Source: Candidatus Spechtbacteria bacterium
GTDB lineage: Bacteria; Patescibacteriota; Minisyncoccia; Spechtbacterales; JACPHP01
Direction of reading: 5' to 3'
Length of the DNA stretch: 64,000 bases
Assembly (NCBI GenBank): GCA_016188605.1
Contig: JACPHP010000001.1
Span: forward strand, 1,327 to 65,326
Below the pieces are notes generated by a model. That model had not been told where the DNA came from and did not search any database. It saw only the letters and a program-made list of their open reading frames with translations. A program made the position numbers and the translations under genes. The first letter of the stretch is position 1; each line of letters opens with the position of its first letter. Shown piece by piece: positions 1 to 10,002 of this stretch.

Positions 1-595
1 CATGCACTTGTGCTGGTCCCATTGCTTTGCGGGCAAAATCTTCGGCATACACACGTTGTTCTGGAGAAAGTGTAATATTTTTGTCTTTCAAGTATCGCGT
101 AATTGCGTGTCTTGCAAGATGCGTCATTCCTTCGCCGCGTACTGCTTGCTCGGTTATAAAATCTCCTTGCTGTGATACTGCCGGTCCTTCAACTTGTATT
201 GTTTTTCCGTCAGGCCCAATTTGCACCCGCATATTGGAATTAGCCGATGATATAGATGATACAGGCGCGCTAGAGTCTTTTTGCGACAGGCTGGCTACAA
301 GTTTTTCGGGAAAATTAGTGGAGAATGAAGGCGCGACGCGGAAAGCGATAAACGCGCCAGCCGCAATAAGAGCAATGCCGGCGATAACCATCATCACGCG
401 CGCGCGGTTTTGCTGAAACCAGATTGCAAGCTGAAAGCCCCACCCATTTGTTCGCGCCCTATCCATAATAGTGTAGAAGTCATCCATTACTAAATCATCA
501 CCTGTATTTTTTCCCGATGAAAAACGCGGCCCCTGGTGACCTTGAGAAGGTGAACCGTTTTGTTGTAGTGGAGAATCTTGAGAAAAAGTAAACAT
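1..595 (-). CDS. hypothetical membrane-anchored protein, 3' end truncated by window edge (ATG at 595-593, N-terminal TM helix, Ser-rich linker)
   Basis: Manual reverse translation of 1..595 gives a continuous ORF: MFTFSQDSPLQQNGSPSQGHQG...MVIAGIALIAAGAFIAF...RYLKDKNITLSPEQRVYAEDFARKAMGPAQVH, running off the window. It is not in the ORF track because it has no stop inside the window. The antisense track ORF 27..416 has low-complexity composition. Confidence 0.4.
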   Translation of the reverse strand, partial: MFTFSQDSPLQQNGSPSQGHQGPRFSSGKNTGDDLVMDDFYTIMDRARTNGWGFQLAIWFQQNRARVMMVIAGIALIAAGAFIAFRVAPSFSTNFPEKLVASLSQKDSSAPVSSISSANSNMRVQIGPDGKTIQVEGPAVSQQGDFITEQAVRGEGMTHLARHAITRYLKDKNITLSPEQRVYAEDFARKAMGPAQVH

Positions 596-647
596 AGAGA
601 TACGGAAATAAGGGTTAAAAAACCCTTTTTGGGTCGTCGCTCGCTAG

Positions 648-672
648 GAAGAGAAAGCTTGCTTTCTCTTCT
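648..672. repeat. perfect 10-bp stem hairpin gaagagaaag-cttg-ctttctcttc, flanked by direct repeat gctcgctag
   Basis: Seen directly in the sequence. Function unknown: possible terminator or recombination site. Confidence 0.5.
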
Positions 673-795
673 CTTGCTCGCTAGACAATAATTATAATTA
701 AAAATGAAACGGATAATATCCGTTGTTTTTATCGCTATATTAAAGCGATATGTTTGTTAATGAACAAATTCTATTTCAATAGTTATCAATATAAC

Positions 796-950
796 ATCTC
801 AAATCTCAAATGTTAAATCGCAAAACTAAAACTCAAATCTCTCAGCCAAGGGCTGATCCGCCTCCGGCGGAAAAACTTTTAATCTGACAGAGAGGAGATT
901 GTAGATTTAAGATGCAGATTTAAGATTTGCCATTTGAGATTTGAGATAAA
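796..950. repeat. palindromic heptamer array (aaatctc / gagattt arms) enclosing a REP-like twin-hairpin element
   Basis: Left arm has tandem caaatct-type 7-mers and the right arm has the reverse-complement 7-mers. The same organisation recurs at 58914..59068. Confidence 0.7.
842..875 (+). mobile_element. REP-like twin-hairpin element copy R1 (tCAGCC-aag-GGCTGa-tCCGCC-tcc-GGCGGaaaaa)
   Basis: Two adjacent GC-rich mini-hairpins in AT-rich spacer. Family has about 10 copies in the window. Confidence 0.7.
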
Positions 951-1009
951 AACAATCAAATTTATAGTCTTATTAAAATCTAAGATCTCATACTTAGAAT
1001 TAATACTAT

Positions 1010-2062
1010 TTATTTCTCATTCTGTGCCGCGGATGAAATTACGTCAAGCATTTCATCTAAATCACCATCGAGAATTGCGGTGATGTTGTGCCAATTTTCG
1101 TTAATACGATGATCCGTAACGCGATCTTGAGGAATATTGTATGTGCGAATTTTTTCACTTCGCTCGCCGCTGCCTATTTGAGAACGGCGCGCCTCTCCGC
1201 GCGCTTTTTCTTCTTTTTCACGCTGTTCTTGTAATATGCGGCTACGCAAAATTGTTAGCGCGATCTCTTTGTTTTCCGCTTGCGAGCGTCCGGCTTGCGA
1301 AGCAACGACCGTACCGGTGGGAATGTGGGTTACCCTTACAGCCGAAGATGTTTTATTTACATATTGTCCGCCAGGCCCAGACGCGCGAAAAACGTCTATC
1401 TGTAATTCGTCTTGGCGGATTTGAATATCGATCGGTTTTGCTTTTGGCAAAATTGCCACGGATGCCGTGGATGTATGCACGCGACCCGCTTTTTCTGTTT
1501 CCGGAATACGCTGTACACGATGTACGCCGCTTTCATATTCTAGGCGCGAAAAAGCGCCCTTGCCATGTATTTCACAAACCGCTTCTTTAATGCCGCCAAT
1601 TTCCGTTCTGCTTGAATCTAGAATGGTAAATTTCCAATTTTTGCGTTCGGCATATCGTGTGTACATACGCAGAAGGTTTTGCGCGAACAAGGCCGCCTCA
1701 TCACCACCGACACCAGCTCGTATTTCCATAATCAAATCGTCATATTCTTTATCAGATGTTGTGGGATTAACGAATTCTGTTAGCTGTTTCTCAATGTCAG
1801 CCATTTTTTGTTTATCTTCCCGCGCTGTTTCTGTGGCGAGTTGCGCCATCTCCGGATCGGTTTCTTTCTGAGCCATTTCCTCGTGTTCTTTTATCATTTC
1901 CTCAAGCTCATTGATTTGTTCCTGGAAGGAGACGATCTGCTCTACAAAAGAGTACCTTTTGGACGCTTCTCGCAGTTCTTGGCTAGACGAAAAAGCTCTC
2001 GGGTTGCTTAGTTTACCCGCGAGCTCATCCCGTTCTTTTTTTAGTTCGGAAGTATCATGCAT
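1010..2062 (-). CDS. prfA: peptide chain release factor 1
   Basis: 350 aa. GGQ motif (SGPGGQYVNKT) and the RF1-type tripeptide region RVQRIPETEKAGRVHTS (PxT-type, not the SPF of RF2). Confidence 0.9.
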   Translation of the reverse strand: MHDTSELKKERDELAGKLSNPRAFSSSQELREASKRYSFVEQIVSFQEQINELEEMIKEHEEMAQKETDPEMAQLATETAREDKQKMADIEKQLTEFVNPTTSDKEYDDLIMEIRAGVGGDEAALFAQNLLRMYTRYAERKNWKFTILDSSRTEIGGIKEAVCEIHGKGAFSRLEYESGVHRVQRIPETEKAGRVHTSTASVAILPKAKPIDIQIRQDELQIDVFRASGPGGQYVNKTSSAVRVTHIPTGTVVASQAGRSQAENKEIALTILRSRILQEQREKEEKARGEARRSQIGSGERSEKIRTYNIPQDRVTDHRINENWHNITAILDGDLDEMLDVISSAAQNEK

Positions 2063-2097
2063 AGCTATGATTTGAGAAGCTGGACATGAATTATATC

Positions 2098-2177
2098 ATC
2101 AACGAATAACGAATCTGTTACGAATAAACGAATTGACCAGCATTCGTAATTTAGCGCGGGATTCGCTATTCGTTGAT
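2098..2177. mobile_element. MITE family A copy 1 (TIR ATCAACGAATAACGAAT ... ATTCGCTATTCGTTGAT)
   Basis: 17-bp terminal inverted repeats seen directly, with internal cgaata 7-mer sub-repeats. Fills the prfA-rpmE spacer. Confidence 0.75.
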
Positions 2178-2191
2178 GATGCCATTGAAAA

Positions 2192-2410
2192 TTATTTCGT
2201 CTTCAGATCCTCATGTTTCTCCGCTCGTTTACGGAAACGTTCTACGCGGCTGCCTCGTAACGCGCTCTGCGCGCCGGTGTAGAAAGGATGGCAGGCGCTG
2301 CAGGTTTCTATCTCAATAGATTCTTTGGTCGCGCCAATAGTAAAAGTAACGCCGCAGGCGCAGGTTACTTTGGCATTAGGGAAATATTTAGGATGAATAT
2401 CTTTTTTCAT
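2192..2410 (-). CDS. rpmE: 50S ribosomal protein L31
   Basis: 72 aa. MKKDIHPKY N-terminus and a C-x-C...C-x-x-H zinc pattern typical of L31. Confidence 0.85.
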   Translation of the reverse strand: MKKDIHPKYFPNAKVTCACGVTFTIGATKESIEIETCSACHPFYTGAQSALRGSRVERFRKRAEKHEDLKTK

Positions 2411-2562
2411 AGGATTGAATGAATTTAGTAAGTGTTCCGATTTCTTTTATATAATAGGCGAAAACCGGTATTTTGTAAATCTGGCAGGAAAAAATAGGCA
2501 AGGCGGGAGGCTAACAAGCCCCCGCCTCGTAGGATAAGCAGCAGTCCACCTTGGGGTTATTG

Positions 2563-3087
2563 TTAACTGGCAGAGTTTTTTTGGGGAAGCGACGCGGAGA
2601 TCGTTGAAATAGCGCTGCGAAGCAATGAAATAATGTCACTGCGAAACCGCACCATCTCGTTGCCAACAAAAAACACACTAACACTCAACAGTGGATGTGG
2701 CCACACCTCATCTAGCACCTTACTTTGACCAATATGGAAAGAGGAAAATGTTAGGAGTGCTAGGAACAAGCTCCACCATGCCACAAAGAATACTTCCCCT
2801 GGCTTGCGCTTGAGGGCTCCATTGCACTTTGCCTTATAAACTTCCTTTGTGCCGAGGTATACTCCCAAGAGTATAAGGTATATCTCGTTTAGCATTGTCG
2901 GCGCTTGGGCAAACCACTGGAAGCCCGCAAAACGCAGAAGGATAATGACAAGATACAGTACAGTAATTCCCGCGCTGAAGCAGAAAAGAAAGTTTTTTAT
3001 ATTTTCCGCAATGACAACGGCATCCACCGTCGCATTGCTATTACCGTTACCATTAAGCAGCGTGTCCGGCTGGGTAGTCATAGCCAT
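2563..3087 (-). CDS. hypothetical polytopic membrane protein
   Basis: 174 aa ORF with several hydrophobic helices and an Asn/Gly-rich N-terminus. No recognisable family. Confidence 0.45.
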   Translation of the reverse strand: MAMTTQPDTLLNGNGNSNATVDAVVIAENIKNFLFCFSAGITVLYLVIILLRFAGFQWFAQAPTMLNEIYLILLGVYLGTKEVYKAKCNGALKRKPGEVFFVAWWSLFLALLTFSSFHIGQSKVLDEVWPHPLLSVSVFFVGNEMVRFRSDIISLLRSAISTISASLPQKNSAS

Positions 3088-3220
3088 CCTCCCTCACTGG
3101 TTTTGTTGAAATGTGCTGTATATGGCTTATATCACGATTATCTGCTAAACACAAGCCCCTGCAGAGGAACTGCTCACACCTCTTAAAGATGACGTTACGT
3201 TGAGATTAAACCTCGCCAGA

Positions 3221-3332
3221 TTCCATTGTTTCATTGCTCTATCGTTACATTGTTACATTGTTTCATTGTTGCATGGTTTCATGGTTACATAAACAATGAA
3301 ACAATGGAGCAATGAAGGGTCAATGGGAGCGG
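3221..3332. repeat. palindromic heptamer array (cattgtt / aacaatg arms)
   Basis: ccattgtttcattgctc...cattgttacattgtttcattgttgc ... acaatgaaacaatggagcaatgaag. Inverted arms seen directly. Confidence 0.65.
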
Positions 3333-3444
3333 TCGGTAATAACTGCTCATGCGTCTTCAAAAATGGTTTATGTAAGCCAAATCATTATTTAGGGGTGTGA
3401 GAGGGGTTCCCTCCGCAGAGATGGGGCGCGCGCGTAAGTAAGTA

Positions 3445-4413
3445 TTGCGTACTATTAAATGTTCTGCTATACTTTTTGATATGTTAGAAAAAATTCAATT
3501 TACCCCCTTAGATCCTCAAAACTCCAGCTCTCAAGTTGTAGATGAGGGATATATAAGGTCAAACAACAATCCCGTTTCCCGTATTGTTAATCTAACGGGG
3601 TTTACAGATGAAGTGGATGCATCAAACGTTTCAGCGAAGTCCAGTCTCGCCAAGCCGAGGCCTTTGGCGGAGGATGGTCTCGCGCAAGGCTACAGCGAGA
3701 CGAAGCCAGGAATAATAGAGCCTGTTTCGCAAGAAATTGCAAATTTGTTTGCTCGCGGAGCGCATTTTGGGCACCAAAAATCGTACGTGCATCCGTCTAT
3801 GATGCCATACATTGTGGGCGTTAGAAACAACGTGCACATTATTGATGTACAGCAAACATTAGACAAATTAGAGGTAGCGCGAAATTTTCTTAGCACTCAA
3901 GCAACTCAAGGGAAAATTATTCTTTTCGTGGGTACCAAATTACCTGTTCGCGGTTTGGTTAAAAAGTATGCGGAAGAAGCAGGAATGCCATATATTATCG
4001 AACGATGGGCAGGTGGCATTTTAACCAACTGGAAAACTATTTCTTTGCGCGTTGAGTATTATCGCGACCTTGAGGCAAAGACCAAATCTGAAGATTGGGA
4101 AAAGTATCCTAAAATTGAGCGTTTGCACATGGAAGAGGAACTCGGACGGCTTGCAAGAGATTGGGGAGGTATTCATGATATGAAAAAGCAACCGGATGTC
4201 GTTGTGGTTGTTGATATGCATAGCGATAGTTTGGCGGTCGCAGAAGCAAATAAGCTCGATATTCCAGTTGTCGCGATTGCAGACACCAATATTAATGTCA
4301 ATTTGGCAACTTATCCAATTCCTGCAAGCGACGATTCTCTCGCAAGCGTGGAGTTTATACTAGAGAAGTTGGCTGAGGCAATTACTAAGGGGAAGAGCAA
4401 GGTGAGTCAATAG
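3445..4413 (+). CDS. rpsB: 30S ribosomal protein S2 with a roughly 100-aa non-conserved N-terminal extension (true start uncertain; possible internal TTG near 3655)
   Basis: Conserved S2 core (GAHFGHQKSYVHPSMMPYIVG ... VVVVDMHSDSLAVAEANKLDIPVVAIADTN) begins about aa 100. The rpsB-tsf order is conserved. Confidence 0.8.
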   Translation: MRTIKCSAILFDMLEKIQFTPLDPQNSSSQVVDEGYIRSNNNPVSRIVNLTGFTDEVDASNVSAKSSLAKPRPLAEDGLAQGYSETKPGIIEPVSQEIANLFARGAHFGHQKSYVHPSMMPYIVGVRNNVHIIDVQQTLDKLEVARNFLSTQATQGKIILFVGTKLPVRGLVKKYAEEAGMPYIIERWAGGILTNWKTISLRVEYYRDLEAKTKSEDWEKYPKIERLHMEEELGRLARDWGGIHDMKKQPDVVVVVDMHSDSLAVAEANKLDIPVVAIADTNINVNLATYPIPASDDSLASVEFILEKLAEAITKGKSKVSQ

Positions 4414-4440
4414 ATCATTTGAAGAAAATAGGTAGGCGCG

Positions 4441-4498
4441 AATAGTGAAGACAGAATCATGAATCATGAATACTGCACCTCACTATTCATAATTCATC
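4441..4498. repeat. interleaved inverted repeats (aatagtga/tcactatt and gaatcatgaatcatgaata/tattcataattcat) in the rpsB-tsf spacer
   Basis: Seen directly. Heptamer gaatcat units. Confidence 0.65.
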
Positions 4499-4505
4499 TT
4501 TTTTT

Positions 4506-5093
4506 ATGTCTATTTCTGCCCAACAAGTTCAGGAACTACGCCAAGCATCGGGCGCGGGTGTTATGGATGTGAAGCAAGCTCTTGAGGAAGCTGGTGGTGA
4601 TATACAAATTGCGCGTGATATTTTGCGTAAGAAGGGAATGATTAAGGCGGCTAAAAAAATGGAACGTGAAACACACGAAGGCCGCGTTGAAGCATATATT
4701 CATGCAAATAATAAAGTCGGAGTATTGTTGAAGCTTTATTGCGAAACAGATTTTGTCGCGCAAAACGAACAGTTTGCTCAGCTTGCGCACGATCTTGTGT
4801 TGCACATCGCGGCATCAAATCCTCAATATGTTTCTCCAGCCGACGTTCCCGCGCAAATTTTGGACAACGAACGCCGTATTTATACAGAGCAATTGCAGGG
4901 ATTGCAAAAGCCGACCGATGTTTTAGCGCAAATTATTGAAGGAAAGATAGAGAAGTTTATGCAAGAAGTCGCGCTCACCAAACAGCCATTCGTTAAAGAT
5001 CTGGATAAAACCGTGGAAGATGTTATTAACGAGGCAATTGCAAAAATAGGGGAGAATATTCAGATTGGGGGATTTGTGCGTTATGAGCTCTAA
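4506..5093 (+). CDS. tsf: elongation factor Ts
   Basis: 195 aa. N-terminal UBA-like region (LRQASGAGVMDVKQALEEAGGDIQIARDILRKKG) and EF-Ts core. Confidence 0.9.
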   Translation: MSISAQQVQELRQASGAGVMDVKQALEEAGGDIQIARDILRKKGMIKAAKKMERETHEGRVEAYIHANNKVGVLLKLYCETDFVAQNEQFAQLAHDLVLHIAASNPQYVSPADVPAQILDNERRIYTEQLQGLQKPTDVLAQIIEGKIEKFMQEVALTKQPFVKDLDKTVEDVINEAIAKIGENIQIGGFVRYEL

Positions 5094-5195: not shown

Positions 5196-6009
5196 GCTTT
5201 CTTTTTTCCCCCACATTCTTTTTTTACTAAGCGTAGCTGGTATCATCATCATTTTTGGTAAAAAACTCCCGACGCTTAAAAATACTACGGATGTCGAGCC
5301 ATTGAATTATGAGGCAACAACATCTTTTTTGTATGACGTGTTTCGTTCCGCGCATATTTTGTTTAGTCGTTTTTTTGGATACTCGCAACGAGAAAAGGTA
5401 TTTATCTATTTAGAAAAATTGCTTCGCAAAGTAAAGGTGCTTCTGATGCGTTGGGAAAATAAGCTGAGCAAAGCATTAGAGTATTTTTCAACTCGTTCTT
5501 CGCAGCGTATTTTGAAGGAAAGATTTGACCAAGAATCCAAACACAGAATTAGCTGGGACGACATTCGTCAAACAGAGGGAAATTTTTTCTCTGCCAAGCC
5601 GAAGTCTTCGGCGAAGGATGGTTTTAAGAAGATAGCTGATCCTATATTGGCAAGCTCAAATTCAGACGCTGATCTAAATGTTATTGTACGGCAAAAGAAG
5701 AAATCCGCCCCCATCTCGTCTAATTGGGGTTCCGGCGAGGTAGACAGAAAATCTAAAAGCAGTAAACAGGAGCAGTCAGTCCAGATTTCTCCAGTTTCAA
5801 TCGTAAGCACAAATTCCGAAGAAGAAGAATTTTGGCTAAGTGTTCTTAGGCAAAATCCACACAACCCTCATCCATATAAAAAATTAGGCGAGATATATAT
5901 GAACCGCGGTGAATATCATGAGGCGAAGGCAGCGTTTGTGTATGTTTTGAAGCGAAATCCCGATGATCAGGAAACTATGAAATGGCTTGAGAATATAAAA
6001 AGGAAGTAA
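5194..6009 (+). CDS. hypothetical protein: N-terminal TM helix, Lys/Ser-rich middle, C-terminal TPR-like helix pair
   Basis: 271 aa. C-terminus YKKLGEIYMNRGEYHEAKAAFVYVLKRNPDDQETMKWLENI resembles one TPR unit. Confidence 0.5.
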   Translation: MLSFFPHILFLLSVAGIIIIFGKKLPTLKNTTDVEPLNYEATTSFLYDVFRSAHILFSRFFGYSQREKVFIYLEKLLRKVKVLLMRWENKLSKALEYFSTRSSQRILKERFDQESKHRISWDDIRQTEGNFFSAKPKSSAKDGFKKIADPILASSNSDADLNVIVRQKKKSAPISSNWGSGEVDRKSKSSKQEQSVQISPVSIVSTNSEEEEFWLSVLRQNPHNPHPYKKLGEIYMNRGEYHEAKAAFVYVLKRNPDDQETMKWLENIKRK

Positions 6010-6048
6010 GGGCTAGTATTTAAGATTTCTTGGTTTATATTCAATTTA

Positions 6049-6121
6049 GCCAGCGTAGCTCAGTTGGTAGAGCAACACTTTTGTAAAGTGAAGGTCGTCG
6101 GTTCGAATCCGACCGCTGGCT
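6049..6121 (+). tRNA. tRNA-Thr (anticodon UGU); CCA not encoded
   Basis: Manual fold: acceptor GCCAGCG/CGCTGGC, D-arm GCTC-AGTTGGTA-GAGC, anticodon stem ACACT/AGTGA with loop TTTGTAA (U33, anticodon TGT, A37), T-arm GTCGG-TTCGAATC-CGACC, discriminator T. Confidence 0.85.
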
Positions 6122-6180
6122 CATTGGCATCTTTAATGTGGGTTGGGCGGAAGAAGTAAAATAAGTGCGGTAGAAATAGC

Positions 6181-6211
6181 AATGCCCTCAACAACAGTCG
6201 AGGGCATTTCG
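6181..6211. terminator. 9-bp stem hairpin (aatgccctc ... gagggcatt) 3' of the GC-rich minus-strand gene
   Basis: Seen directly. Lies immediately downstream of the 6213 stop on the minus strand. Confidence 0.5.
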
Positions 6212-6212
6212 T

Positions 6213-6887
6213 TTAGCGACTACCGCAAGACGCGGAACCCCAGCGGCCATCCGAGTCGCCGACCCCGTACCAGAAGAGCCTCGGCCGATCGCCGCCGTCC
6301 AGATAGACATTCGGCACCCCGTCGGCGGACTCGTAGCGGGAGCCGGTAGCCCACACATAGTGCCGCGAGAGCACATCCGTGTGAGTGGTGAGCGCCATGA
6401 CCTCGGCGGCAGTGAGCGGAGACCGCTTCTGCTGCTTGAGGATTTTCTCGGCGTTCTCCGGCGACTTGCCGCGCGTGCTGTTGCCGTCCTCGACATCGTA
6501 GATGTAGTAGGGCTCGCTGGGAGCGTCCACCACATCGGAGATCGCGGTCGGGTTGAGATAGGTGTAGCCCACCTTCCCGCCGTTCTTGACCATCGCCATG
6601 AGGTCGTAGGGGCTCCGATACGAACGGGGGATGACCGGGAGGAACGGAATGTTGCCGTCTCCGATCGCCACCTCGCTCGCCTTCTTCACCACTGCGCCCT
6701 TCTGGTTCTGGAGGATCTCCACGATCTGCTCTGGGACGCCGCGATCCTTGAGAGTCGCGATCTGAGCATCGAAGAGCTTCTCGAGGTCGTTCCGCTTGGC
6801 CTGCGCCACCGCGTCATCGAACTTCTCCGGGTCGGCCTCTCGCAAGAGGGCGACCAACCTCCCGATCAACTGAAACTGATTTACCAT
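6213..6887 (-). CDS. hypothetical protein encoded on a roughly 62 % GC island (likely horizontally acquired); family not recognised
   Basis: 224 aa with strongly GC3-biased codons, unlike all neighbours. Strong SD GGAGGAA 6 nt upstream of ATG at 6887. The island starts 19 nt after tRNA-Thr. Confidence 0.7.
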   Translation of the reverse strand: MVNQFQLIGRLVALLREADPEKFDDAVAQAKRNDLEKLFDAQIATLKDRGVPEQIVEILQNQKGAVVKKASEVAIGDGNIPFLPVIPRSYRSPYDLMAMVKNGGKVGYTYLNPTAISDVVDAPSEPYYIYDVEDGNSTRGKSPENAEKILKQQKRSPLTAAEVMALTTHTDVLSRHYVWATGSRYESADGVPNVYLDGGDRPRLFWYGVGDSDGRWGSASCGSR

Positions 6888-6908
6888 CTGTCCTTCCTCC
6901 TTCTGGAC

Positions 6909-6928
6909 TTTTCCGCCAAAGGCGGATC
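6909..6928 (-). mobile_element. partial/degenerate REP-like element copy R2 (ttttCCGCCaaaGGCGGatc)
   Basis: CCGCC-aaa-GGCGG hairpin preceded by tttt, matching one half of the twin-hairpin element. Confidence 0.5.
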
Positions 6929-6938
6929 TGTCTCTGGC

Positions 6939-8015
6939 ATGACACTTTCTGCGTTATGTATAACAAAATTCTGCCTCCTGTCAAGTACCCCGGGTAATGT
7001 GCCGCACATTACCAGCAGTTACATCAAATGCAGAGAAATATGGTATAATAACCTCGTGAATAATTTATTCGTTGACAAATTACGCGATAATTTTTCAGCC
7101 ACTCCACGCAATCAATATATAGCGTCTGCTTTTTTGATTTTTGCGACGTTTGCAATGTGGGAAGGGGTGAATGTTTTGGTTTCTGGGTCTGAAATCGCAG
7201 ATATTCATCTGATAATTGGGCTTATTGGTTTTACCCTATGGTCCGCGCTATTTGCTCTAAGCTTTCTTTTGCTTGATCCGCCGTGGCTTGCATACATTGT
7301 ATATATTATTACAAGTATCGTGCTTCTCGCATTGTTCGGCTGGCAGCAATGGCCTATCGTTGGTGTTGCTTCGTTCTTAATTTTTACGGTGTCCGCGCGC
7401 CAAAGTGTTACAAATGAGCGTGAATTACTTGCATCGTTTAGATTGAGCCGCTTTGTTAAAAAGGGATTGTCGTCATTTTTTACCGGCGTTGCCATACTGC
7501 TCGCGTTCGTTTATTATTTTTCTCCGTACGGAGCAGCAAACTTGCGGCCGGAAATTCCGCGCGCGGTAGTTGATCTCTCATTTATTCCAATAGACGTTAT
7601 TGCCGCAACAACAATCTACGGCTACGAACCAGGAGCAACTGTCGGCCAGTTCCAATCGTTGATGATCCAAAATCTTTTGCCAATATTAACTCACAGTACC
7701 GGACCGGTTCAAATTACAGAAGATGTGAAAAAAAATTTCAGCGTGATTAAAGATGAAAAAACGCTCGGAATGCCCCTGCCCCAATTTATATACGAGCAGT
7801 CAAACGCCTATCTTGCAAAATTCGTTGAGCCGTATAAAAGCTATTTGCCAATATTTTTCGTGCTTACTTCATTCTTGACTTTTAAATTATTGAGTATACC
7901 ATTTGTATGGTTTACTCAGCTTGCCGCGTGGGGTTTAATGAAGCTATTTATTGCACTCGGTATAGCAGGGTTTAATAAGGAAATAATAGAAAAAGACAGG
8001 CTGGTGTTGAAGTAA
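6939..8015 (+). CDS. hypothetical polytopic membrane protein (start chosen at first ATG outside the GC island)
   Basis: Track ORF 6360..8015 runs antisense through the GC-rich gene for its first about 190 codons. The hydrophobic multi-TM sequence begins about 6939. Confidence 0.5.
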
Positions 8016-8028
8016 AACAATTAATGAA

Positions 8029-9111
8029 ATGGAAAAAGATTATTATAAGATATTGGGCCTTGAAAAAAGAGCCTCAAAAGACGATATCAAAAAGGCCTAT
8101 CGCAAGCTTGCGCACCAATATCATCCCGATAAACAAGGCGGAGATGAAAAGAAGTTTAAAGAAATAAACGAAGCCTATCAAGTATTGTCTGATGACACTA
8201 AGCGTGCTCGGTACGATCAGTTCGGCTCCGCTTTTGAGCAACAAGGAGGATTTAGTGGTTTCGGCGGCGCTGGCTTTGGTCGGGGCGGTGGAGCATGGCA
8301 AGGCGATATAAATGATATTTTCCGTGAGTTTTTTGGCGGCGGCCACGATGGTTTTGGCGCGGGCTTTGGAGGCGGTCAAACGCCAAGACAACGCGGTAGC
8401 GATATTTCTATAGATGTCGAGCTTACGCTCGAGCAGGCATTTAGCGGAATCGATCACACTGCTCACCTAAAGAAGTTTGCAAAATGTTCACGTTGTGAAG
8501 GTAGGCGAGGAGAGCCTGGCACGTCTGTTAAAACTTGTTCAAAATGTGACGGTAAGGGAGAGATTCGCCATGTGCAAAACACTATTTTGGGTTCATTTGC
8601 CAGCATGCAAACATGTCCGCAGTGCGGCGGCATAGGTACGATAGCGGAAAAGCCATGCAAGCAGTGTCGCGGTACTGGACGGGAACAGCAGGTTGAAAAG
8701 ATTACATTCAATATTCCAGCAGGGATCTCTGACGGGGAAATGGTGCGTGTTTCAGGCAAGGGTGAGTATGATATAAATGGCGCGGGCGATTTATATGCTA
8801 GAATATATATTAAAAAACACCCCGTGTTTATAAGAAAGGAGAGCGATCTTTACAGCACAATAACAATACCAATGACAGAAGCAATTTTAGGTGGTGAAAA
8901 AAGTGTCAGGGTAATTGATGGAAACGGTAAGCTAGAAATACCAGCGGGAATTCAGTCTGGCACATTGTTGAAGTTAAGCGGCAAGGGCATGTCTAGCCCT
9001 CAGCGCGGCGGCAGAGGCAATCATTTCTTTCAAGTAATCGTGGAAACACCAAAGAAAGTTTCCAGGCGGGCAAAAGAGTTGTTACAAGGGCTACAAAAAG
9101 AAGGATTATAA
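8029..9111 (+). CDS. dnaJ: chaperone DnaJ
   Basis: J-domain with HPD (AHQYHPDKQ), G/F-rich linker, and four CxxCxGxG zinc-finger repeats (CSRCEG, CSKCDG, CPQCGG, CKQCRG). Confidence 0.9.
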
Positions 9112-9112
9112 T

Positions 9113-9646
9113 ATGAGCTTTTTAAAATCTTTTTCTTTTCCGTCAATTCACACTCCATTCCAGTTTTCTCTTGATTTGGGAATCGTTGTATTTGGTCTTA
9201 TCGCGTTATTTCTGTATTGCATGTCTATCGGGCGAAAGCGTATCACGGTTTTACTTTTGAGCGGATACATAGCTCGAGTAGTATTTCAGGTTTTGCCATT
9301 TGATGTGAGCGCGAAGGTGTATTCTTTTAATACCAATTTTTTTTCATGGATAATGGGGCTGCTGTTTTTAATCCTGGTTGCTATAATATATTTTTTGCTA
9401 GCTGGATCGGCTTTGCGCATGGCTTTGCGCCTGCCTAATAATGGCGACGCATCGTGGTGGCATATTATCTTGCTTAGCCTGATTACGTCTGGATTTTTTA
9501 TGGCAACTTTGTTACATTTAATGACGGATGGCACAGCCCTTTCATCTACCGTCAAGATGGCGTTTTTCTCGCCTTACGCGTTATTTGGCTGGACGGTAGC
9601 GCCAATTATTGCAATTGCATTGGTACGGCGAGGAGGGACGGAATAA
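9113..9646 (+). CDS. hypothetical membrane protein (start 1 nt after dnaJ stop, so translationally coupled)
   Basis: 177 aa with 4-5 hydrophobic helices. Confidence 0.5.
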   Translation: MSFLKSFSFPSIHTPFQFSLDLGIVVFGLIALFLYCMSIGRKRITVLLLSGYIARVVFQVLPFDVSAKVYSFNTNFFSWIMGLLFLILVAIIYFLLAGSALRMALRLPNNGDASWWHIILLSLITSGFFMATLLHLMTDGTALSSTVKMAFFSPYALFGWTVAPIIAIALVRRGGTE

Positions 9647-9650
9647 ATCC

Positions 9651-9893
9651 ATGTCATCTGTATACGTGTTAAAGAGTCTGCGGAATGGCAAGAGGTATAT
9701 TGGAAGTACCGAACTTAATCCTGAAGAAAGATTGAAGCGGCATAATTCCGGTACCAATCAATTTACAAAAAGAAATGGGCCATTTGTATTGGTCTATCGA
9801 GAACAGTGTACTGACAAAACAGCATCAAGAAAAAGAGAGAATTTTTTAAAATCAGGAGTTGGAAGAAAGTACCTAGATAGTATTCTTAGTTAG
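9651..9893 (+). CDS. GIY-YIG nuclease superfamily protein (YhbQ/UPF0213-like, 80 aa)
   Basis: VYVLKSLRNGKRYIGSTELNPEERLKRHNSG...PFVLVYREQ...RENFLKSGVGRK matches the GIY-YIG core. GGAGGG sits upstream of ATG 9651. The track ORF starts earlier at 9609 inside the upstream gene. Confidence 0.6.
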   Translation: MSSVYVLKSLRNGKRYIGSTELNPEERLKRHNSGTNQFTKRNGPFVLVYREQCTDKTASRKRENFLKSGVGRKYLDSILS

Positions 9894-9906
9894 TTAAGTG
9901 TTTTGT

Positions 9907-9979
9907 GCACCCATAGCTCAGCTGGTAGAGCAGCTCCCTTTTAAGGAGATGGTCGCAGGTCCGAATCCTGCTGGGTGCA
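9907..9979 (+). tRNA. tRNA-Lys (anticodon UUU); CCA not encoded
   Basis: Acceptor GCACCCA/TGGGTGC, D-arm GCTC-AGCTGGTA-GAGC, anticodon stem GCTCC/GGAGA with loop CTTTTAA (anticodon TTT), T-arm GCAGG-TCCGAAT-CCTGC, discriminator A. Confidence 0.85.
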
Positions 9980-10002
9980 CAAAACACTTAACTATGTAGA
10001 GC

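Follow-up and report, generated by a model that had tools for sequence, protein, structure and literature searches.

The 64,000-nt stretch of Candidatus Spechtbacteria contig JACPHP010000001.1 analysed here in full (hereafter the window) carries, at 6213–6887 on the minus strand, a GC-rich gene of the Pfam family DUF5701. It is likely that this gene encodes the variable protein of a diversity-generating retroelement (DGR), that it has been exchanged among bacteria of the candidate phyla radiation (CPR), and that it is present here without its retroelement. On this reading, what had passed for an unknown foreign gene becomes something specific and testable, namely a binding protein that was written by a DGR and belongs to an episymbiotic CPR bacterium, and DUF5701 gains a biological context. 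DGR targets in episymbiotic CPR bacteria are suspected mediators of host or phage interactions.

DUF5701 genes as DGR targets in CPR relatives

The product of the gene matches DUF5701 (PF18959) with an E value of 2.4e-13 and 50.7 bits, against a gathering cut-off of 27.4, and its residues 53–224 align with model positions 16–203 of 206; a first-pass annotation of the window had judged the family not recognisable. A word-indexed search returned 280 homologues, and there are 749 cluster representatives at 50% identity. All homologues with an organism name or a record title come from Patescibacteria/CPR or from unclassified 'bacterium' metagenome-assembled genomes (MAGs), a taxonomy that rests on the named records, most matches being unnamed metagenome proteins. 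The same affiliations were found for all 24 loci taken from representative genomes, which lends no support to the high-GC donor among Actinobacteria or Proteobacteria that had been expected. An identical protein is on record from a Candidatus Spechtbacteria MAG, and the 90% cluster of the window protein contains only one sequence on record. Some genomes carry more than one copy: in one Parcubacteria MAG (L002/L007) two DUF5701 genes (4323–5036 and 6001–6456) lie about 1 kb apart with a small helix-turn-helix gene between them, and UBA4787 and a Spechtbacteria MAG have two copies each, on separate contigs.

In CPR relatives, DUF5701 genes are the variable proteins of bona fide DGRs. At loci L004 and L005, the homologue adjoins an RVT_1 reverse transcriptase (RT) gene and a bAvd gene. 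The last 129 nt of the L004 gene are repeated beside Avd at 92% identity, and 8 of the 10 mismatches in this 129-nt alignment of template repeat and variable region (VR) fall on template adenines (p 4.8e-5). The L016 gene stands beside RT, bAvd and a template repeat, and there all 20 mismatches are on template adenines (p 1.4e-14). A full target–RT–Avd–template cassette is also present at L038, with a template repeat 86% identical to its own VR, while RT genes or remnants were found beside the gene in L005, L009, L014 and L028. Given that adenine-specific differences between template and VR are the defining signature of DGRs (PMC3240598, PMC5758913), repeat differences restricted in this way, next to RT and bAvd, identify these loci as DGRs.

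These cassettes have an unusual layout. After the template repeat come a strong, conserved hairpin (AAAGGCGTCC-loop-GGACGCCTTT), Avd on the opposite strand and then RT, towards which the target gene is convergent. This arrangement was seen in L004 (7072–8645), L016 (8358–9928), L033, L034 and L038 (1149–2730). The template signature expected for the window gene would read ...CGGCCGAAGCTCAACTGGAAC...GGTTGTCTCT, followed by the hairpin. In Bordetella phage BPP-1 an inverted repeat follows the VR and not the template repeat. Template–Avd–RT units of the clade to which the window gene belongs were found alone on contigs of about 1–2 kb.

Two of these loci have further features. L038 (IMGVR_UViG_3300035698_027858) is alone among IMG/VR contigs in having a DUF5701 homologue; its DGR adjoins an Amidase_2 (endolysin-like) gene and a 1366-aa open reading frame (ORF), and it may be a CPR phage vector. 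L004 contains, between target gene and RT, a sub-threshold match to Rfam LOOT RNA (6882–7028, plus strand; 33.6 bits against a gathering cut-off of 46.4), which the Rfam scan did not find in L005, L009, L014, L016 or the window. The same locus has a GyrA gene interrupted by an intein with a LAGLIDADG domain (594–5075, from precomputed Pfam matches).

Signature of adenine mutagenesis in the window gene

The following features of the window gene bear on its relation to DGRs.

6213–6887, minus strand: ORF of 224 aa ending in ...GRWGSASCGSR (from the ORF list and reading of the sequence)
6240–6335, minus strand: VR, codons 185–216, in which hypervariable NNC, NNG and NNT codons alternate with nucleotide-identical scaffold codons
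6216–6239, minus strand: constant 3' end of the VR, codons 217–224 (WGSASCGSR region), resembling an initiation of mutagenic homing (IMH) element (from sibling and template alignments)
6212–6347, minus strand: full extent of homology to DGR template repeats (nhmmer, profile built from three such repeats, E 7.7e-19)

The ORF and its length agree with the first-pass annotation. Searches of the 64-kb window detected no RT (tblastn, and a hidden Markov model (HMM) of 80 RT homologues over the six-frame translation), no Avd (tblastn, profile HMM), which in relatives lies beside the gene, and no template repeat (tblastn, template profile). The closest relatives were therefore used as a proxy. In a codon alignment of seven homologues of at least 75% identity (the closest relatives are 75–85% identical), variability at codon positions 1, 2 and 3 was 0.41, 0.62 and 0.28 within the VR, compared with 0.35, 0.29 and 0.53 outside it. 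The variable codons have the forms NNC, NNG and NNT, as expected from template codons AAC, AAG and AAT, and the scaffold codons between them are identical across the seven homologues even at synonymous sites. The VR ends, as in known DGR targets, in a GC-rich, IMH-like constant segment: codons 221–224 are nucleotide-identical in the seven homologues, and 6216–6239 as a whole is identical or nearly so to the siblings. Homology between template and VR ends inside GGTAGTC|GC in L004, L016 and L033, and 6212–6347 is the only match of the template profile in the window.

The strongest single piece of evidence is the successful prediction of a template. The string CGSCCGAAGCTCAACTGGAAC was predicted from the codon pattern, and a metagenome scan returned exactly one contig containing it (L033, from groundwater), where it adjoins the hairpin, a bAvd ORF and RT in the same architecture as in L004. 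The L033 template is heterologous: it stems from a different sample and spans no more than the 3' half of the VR. Within the 54 nt before the constant end, the window gene departs from it at 12 positions, 10 of which are template adenines (Fisher p 6.6e-6), and six sibling genes give a like result against this template. From these comparisons, codons 185–216 of the window gene carry what we take to be the fingerprint of adenine mutagenesis.

Several observations weigh against reading the window gene as a DGR target. The template that supports it is the partial, heterologous one of L033, and the two remaining differences from it, both in codon 208, are off adenines. Searches of the window turned up neither the template nor the RT that would be cognate in this genome. 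An RT or RT remnant lies near the gene in only 7 of about 30 loci, and in none of the 8 closest relatives. Finally, horizontal transfer alone leaves the GC excess of the gene unaccounted for, an excess found at 28 of 28 loci and in the L004, L016 and L038 cassettes, as detailed below.

Predicted fold and comparison with known DGR systems

Structure prediction, which the first-pass annotation had recommended, gave confident AlphaFold2 models, with a pLDDT of 92 over the whole length and of 94.7 over residues 75–224. The modelled protein consists of N-terminal helices and a C-terminal C-type-lectin-like domain, with the VR mapping onto the C-terminal beta-strands. Foldseek returned no strong match, but every structurally coherent PDB/BFVD match was a C-type-lectin domain. 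The best was the C-terminal domain (CTD) of Bd2740 (E 0.0097, TM-score 0.62–0.65), and the others included mannose-binding protein A, DCAR2, mannose-receptor carbohydrate-recognition domains and two viral C-type lectins. The Bd2740 CTD is described by its authors as a C-type-lectin variant whose only trimer-equivalent homologue is Mtd (PMC10769870), the DGR variable protein that serves as prototype. The C-terminal domain of the window protein models as a divergent C-type-lectin fold.

No signal peptide, transmembrane or hydrophobic segment was detected in the window protein (maximum Kyte-Doolittle 19-residue score 0.64). It had no match in PHROGs, PADLOC (0 families at E up to 1) or NCBIfam, which gives no footing to the earlier suggestion of a toxin, defence or anti-defence module. 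PDB sequence searches with the protein and with its profile returned noise only, and tblastn against phage and plasmid collections returned nothing. The protein would be a soluble ligand-binding protein with a binding surface tuned by a DGR. In the relatives, the system works as follows: RT, with bAvd alongside, makes a cDNA of the template repeat in which adenines are misread, and this cDNA replaces the last ~130 nt of the gene, so that about 20 residues of the C-terminal lectin-like domain are randomised and the scaffold codons persist. Movement of the cassette between CPR lineages explains at least part of its foreign GC content. In this genome, no RT, Avd or template is linked to the gene within 64 kb, and a conserved 3' element has been lost.

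The likeness to established DGR variable proteins such as Mtd of Bordetella phage BPP-1, TvpA, AvpA and TaqVP is one of organization: the VR is C-terminal and differs from a template repeat specifically at adenines, the 3' end is constant and GC-rich, the variable residues are displayed on a lectin-like scaffold and, in the relatives of the window gene, RT and Avd are partners. Unlike them, the window protein has a small, soluble form that begins with helices, and it stands outside any phage-tail context. It has no detectable sequence similarity and no Foldseek match to these proteins, Bd2740 CTD being its best match, and the AvpA motifs of PMC5006420 are absent from it. Closer parallels are found among the DGRs described from CPR bacteria (the 'CPR set' with unclassified UVR classes of Wu et al. 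2017, PMC5758913; 'clade 2' of Roux et al. 2021, PMC8144416), which share the CPR hosts, are cellular and not phage-borne, and have targets without transmembrane or other recognisable domains. The window copy differs from these in lacking RT, Avd and template, and the cassettes of its relatives are set apart from them by Avd lying on the opposite strand between template and RT. Neither DUF5701 nor PF18959 is named in the DGR literature that we examined, including the supplements of Roux et al. 2021.

Loss of the 3' element: frozen copy or active remote target

After the stop codon, about 150 nt are conserved in most of 17 aligned relatives (L001, L003, L004, L009, L011, L015, L019, L021, L022, L031, L032 and others). 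This 3' element consists of an array of six or seven TTGG repeats spaced 7–9 nt apart, followed by an TTCCGCCGCAATTTTTTCCACAGG box and then by a terminator, GGGCAG...CTGCCC. Its presence does not depend on an RT next to the gene, as it occurs in either case, and it is short or degenerate in L002b, L005 and L008. RNAalifold found no covariation support for a hairpin in the conserved element, and we therefore describe it as a sequence element and not as a structured RNA. In the window, family homology ends at the stop codon (6214), the ~150-nt element is absent, and a hairpin stands in its place:

6181–6208, minus strand: hairpin with a 12-bp stem (one G–T pair) and a 4-nt loop, TGTT, 5 nt after the TAA stop

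With an energy of -20.6 kcal/mol and a z-score of -6, this hairpin is terminator-like on both strands. The first-pass annotation had recognised it as a terminator but had put its stem at 9 bp. As regards a recognition element downstream of the VR, the window thus has the 12-bp hairpin and no TTGG-repeat element, and the TGTT loop falls outside the GRNA consensus of phage DGR hairpins (PMC3240598).

Efficient homing in BPP-1 requires a structure or hairpin shortly downstream of the VR (PMC3240598). Given that the conserved 3' element of the family has been lost, we lean, by a small degree, towards a frozen copy that is no longer efficiently diversified, over an active remote target, which is almost as probable. 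Three points tell against a frozen state. Neither the constant 3' end nor any scaffold codon has been disrupted. The strong 4-nt-loop hairpin 5 nt past the stop resembles the BPP-1 requirement for a hairpin at such a distance (PMC3240598). Lastly, the DGR cassettes of the clade assemble as contigs of about 1–2 kb, which binning would miss.

The same points form part of the case for a rival that we rate as somewhat improbable but serious, in which a template–Avd–RT unit elsewhere in the genome, probably on a small unbinned contig, still diversifies the gene in trans. The hairpin at 6181–6208 would then be a retrohoming-promoting hairpin or cruciform. Remote DGR targets are documented (for example in Treponema; Wu et al. 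2017, PMC5758913), and the window gene resembles them in lying far from any RT with its VR and constant end intact. Being unlinked also seems normal for the clade, since all 8 closest relatives are without an RT beside the gene, and lone template–Avd–RT units of the clade exist. The window gene differs from the documented remote targets in that the cognate DGR is not in the 64 kb and the 3' element kept by most relatives is missing, which leaves current targeting unproven. No RT labelled with the locus-tag prefix of this MAG is among the 120 best RT homologues, the TGTT loop does not fit the phage consensus, and the single sequence on record in the 90% cluster of the protein likewise counts against ongoing diversification.

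Exchange among CPR lineages and the tRNA-Thr gene

ORF 6213–6887 is compositionally foreign. Its GC content is 0.627, compared with 0.433 window-wide, and reaches 0.62, 0.42 and 0.84 at codon positions 1, 2 and 3 (GC1, GC2 and GC3). At position 3, A and T account for 0.03 and 0.12, respectively, compared with about 0.27 and 0.33 in the neighbouring genes. In 675-nt windows, the island is the sole such region in the 64 kb (z about 7; the rest have a mean of 0.430, a standard deviation of 0.028 and a maximum of 0.508). The first-pass annotation had described a GC-rich island (about 62 %) with extreme GC3, unlike its neighbours, and the GC calculation that it had named as a check confirms a clear deviation.

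The window protein is 84–88% identical to copies in Taylorbacteria/Parcubacteria MAGs, whose RF1 proteins are only 50–54% identical to that encoded in the window. Only 22–32 synonymous third-position differences were counted in about 150 conserved codons, and the gene neighbourhoods of these loci are unrelated. Because protein identity far exceeds RF1 identity, synonymous divergence is low and neighbourhoods are unrelated, these comparisons support horizontal exchange of the cassette among CPR lineages. DUF5701 targets thus travel from one CPR lineage to another as promoter-to-terminator cassettes, and their retroelement is often missing afterwards. Retroposition of an mRNA was rejected as the route of transfer, since a -35 box forms part of what is conserved. 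Where an empty site was sought in sister genomes, nothing but the same organism came up.

Horizontally acquired cargo had also been the first-pass interpretation, in a more specific form: a generic toxin, defence or anti-defence gene brought to tRNA-Thr from a high-GC actinobacterial or proteobacterial donor. The GC anomaly, the nearby tRNA and the horizontal exchange on which it drew are real, the last being borne out by the excess of protein over RF1 identity. A tRNA-targeted island, however, finds no such support. There is no integrase ORF between 6122 and 7056, and a search for attachment sites found no repeat of the tRNA 3' end, the only candidate pair being 6135–6152/7154–7171, with 14 of 18 matches, which is at chance level by our own estimate. 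In the 27 related loci scanned, no tRNA comes closer to the gene than 450 nt, the nearest lying about 490 nt away (L018). The empty PADLOC, PHROGs and phage and plasmid searches and the exclusively CPR or unclassified 'bacterium' affiliation of the named homologues speak against both the proposed function and the proposed donor. Nor does the gene start 19 nt after the tRNA: it lies on the minus strand, and its stop codon (6213–6215) faces tRNA-Thr (6049–6122), 91 nt away. Like tRNA-associated genomic islands, this is a segment of foreign composition beside a tRNA gene; unlike them, it is a single 0.8-kb cassette without integrase or duplicated tRNA end, and its relatives are not near tRNAs. 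Adjacency to tRNA-Thr is incidental, and the cargo explanation, already largely refuted, is highly improbable.

GC enrichment across the family

Gene GC exceeded flank GC at all 28 loci compared (L003–L029, L038 and the window), by +0.04 to +0.26 with a mean of +0.14 (Wilcoxon p 4e-6). In L004 and L016, the target gene has a GC3 of 0.61–0.79, whereas RT and Avd have 0.28–0.42, and in L038 the target is likewise more GC-rich than RT and Avd, whose overall GC of 0.33–0.34 is host-like. Since the gene is richer in GC than its flanks at all 28 loci, and far richer than its own RT and Avd in these cassettes, its composition is not explained by transfer on its own. The pairing of a GC-rich target with AT-rich RT and Avd is a consistent oddity beyond current DGR models.

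High GC may instead be maintained on the target gene itself and not be, or not only be, a residue of recent transfer, a view that we hold to be unlikely. Two examples of a cause are proposed: A/T at synonymous sites might be selected against in connection with adenine mutagenesis or with recognition of the target, or a recombination hot spot might undergo GC-biased gene conversion. Consistent with it, the excess over the flanks persists even in the most GC-rich hosts, extends across subclades only 31–53% identical to the window protein, and is confined to the target where RT and Avd are host-like (L004, L016, L038). On the other hand, copies drift towards host composition, with 45 GC-to-AT synonymous differences against 5 in the reverse direction in L005, and gene GC correlates with host GC (r 0.59). 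Within the close clade, synonymous divergence is as low as recent transfer would lead one to expect, and there is no known mechanism that would maintain the bias. Avoidance of adenine on the sense strand was rejected as the cause of the bias, because T at position 3 is depleted along with A.

Taken further, whole-gene GC enrichment could be a maintained, family-wide property of the CPR DGR target cassette and not only a trace of transfer, which we regard as quite improbable. The enrichment would then go with one of two processes: the adenine-specific mutagenesis or the target recognition of the retroelement, or else GC-biased conversion where recombination has a hot spot. In that case DGR targets, remote or orphaned ones among them, could be recognised by a lone GC spike in an AT-rich CPR genome, and the TTGG-repeat 3' element would be a candidate signal, of a new kind, by which DGRs recognise their targets.

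A self-contained expression cassette

The island is a compact, self-contained expression cassette with its own promoter, 5' untranslated region (UTR), strong Shine-Dalgarno (SD) sequence and ORF. Upstream of the ORF, the following signals were recognised.

6957–6984, minus strand: sigma-70-like promoter, TTGACA-16 nt-TATACA (-10 box at 6957–6962, -35 box at 6979–6984; from an upstream alignment of 11 loci)
6912–6926, minus strand: small 5'-UTR hairpin, TCCGCC-TTT-GGCGGA; relatives have a different hairpin in the same place
6900–6894, minus strand: SD sequence GGAGG(AA) (GGAGG at 6896–6900), 8 nt before the ATG

At loci whose flanks are unrelated, the conserved stretch starts just upstream of the TTGACA -35 box and continues through the -10 box, the 5'-UTR hairpin and the SD sequence into the ORF, and the promoter is the conserved 5' limit of the family cassette. 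The -10 box of the family reads TATACT; the window promoter was not flagged by a consensus scan because the last base of its -10 hexamer is A. The SD sequence is kept in relatives as AAAGGAGGAAAGAC. The unit had originally been delimited as 6122–6937, and its right limit moves outwards, given that the conserved part reaches the -35 box. The canonical GGAGGAA motif reported earlier is present, and the accompanying statement that the genome mostly lacks SD sequences is roughly true: in a scan of 50 long ORFs that was biased towards finding an SD, 25 had no 4-mer SD and 12 had a strong one. A perfect 10-bp palindrome (GGTAATGTGC-c-GCACATTACC, 6993–7013) lies immediately upstream of the -35 box, where the cassette and the membrane-protein gene diverge, and has no conserved counterpart in relatives.

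Assembly and a deletion allele

Two independent Logan contigs match 6775–9952 and 6795–9939 of the window at 100% identity. A chimera at the right junction, which the first-pass annotation had asked to be checked, is thus unlikely. Another Logan contig ends inside the tRNA (~6094), and the left junction is therefore without independent support. One of the break points coincides with an indel:

6794–6803, minus strand: junction left where 39 nt (13 aa of the N-terminal helix) were deleted in frame between two direct repeats, CTTGGCCTGC (L035 compared with L036 and the window)

The undeleted allele is present in a sister-sample contig (L035, 1–36), while the window and L036 are without the segment, and the gap in the protein alignment agrees. 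Given that L035 carries these 39 nt, the 224-aa protein is a deletion allele of the usual 237-aa form. The Logan assemblies break at the site of this polymorphism. In about 9 of the 24 genome loci, the DUF5701 gene is cut by a contig end or lies within ~650 nt of one (L008–L012, L014, L015, L018, L025), a frequency as expected for repeated or hypervariable sequence that fragments assemblies.

It is very improbable that the window is a chimera of two genomes joined through a DUF5701 gene shared in the community. The breaks inside the gene (6775, 6795) and in the tRNA, the unverified left junction and the frequent contig ends at related loci would fit such an origin. Against it, the right junction recurs at 100% identity in two samples, the indel polymorphism explains the break at 6795, and a tRNA sequence common to other community members could explain that at 6094. 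Both flanks are of equal composition, and GC-rich DUF5701 genes occur inside AT-rich CPR contigs in more than 25 independent assemblies.

Setting in the window

The neighbours of the island are CPR housekeeping genes: rpsB, tsf, a TPR protein gene, tRNA-Thr, a membrane-protein gene and dnaJ. The plus-strand ORF 6360–8015 is inflated by the stop-poor antisense of the island, as had been proposed. Rfam detected two tRNAs and nothing more over the island and the whole window. A tRNA-Lys gene (9907–9980) has a small ORF with a GIY-YIG domain directly upstream (9609–9893), and the same order is found in the Logan contigs.

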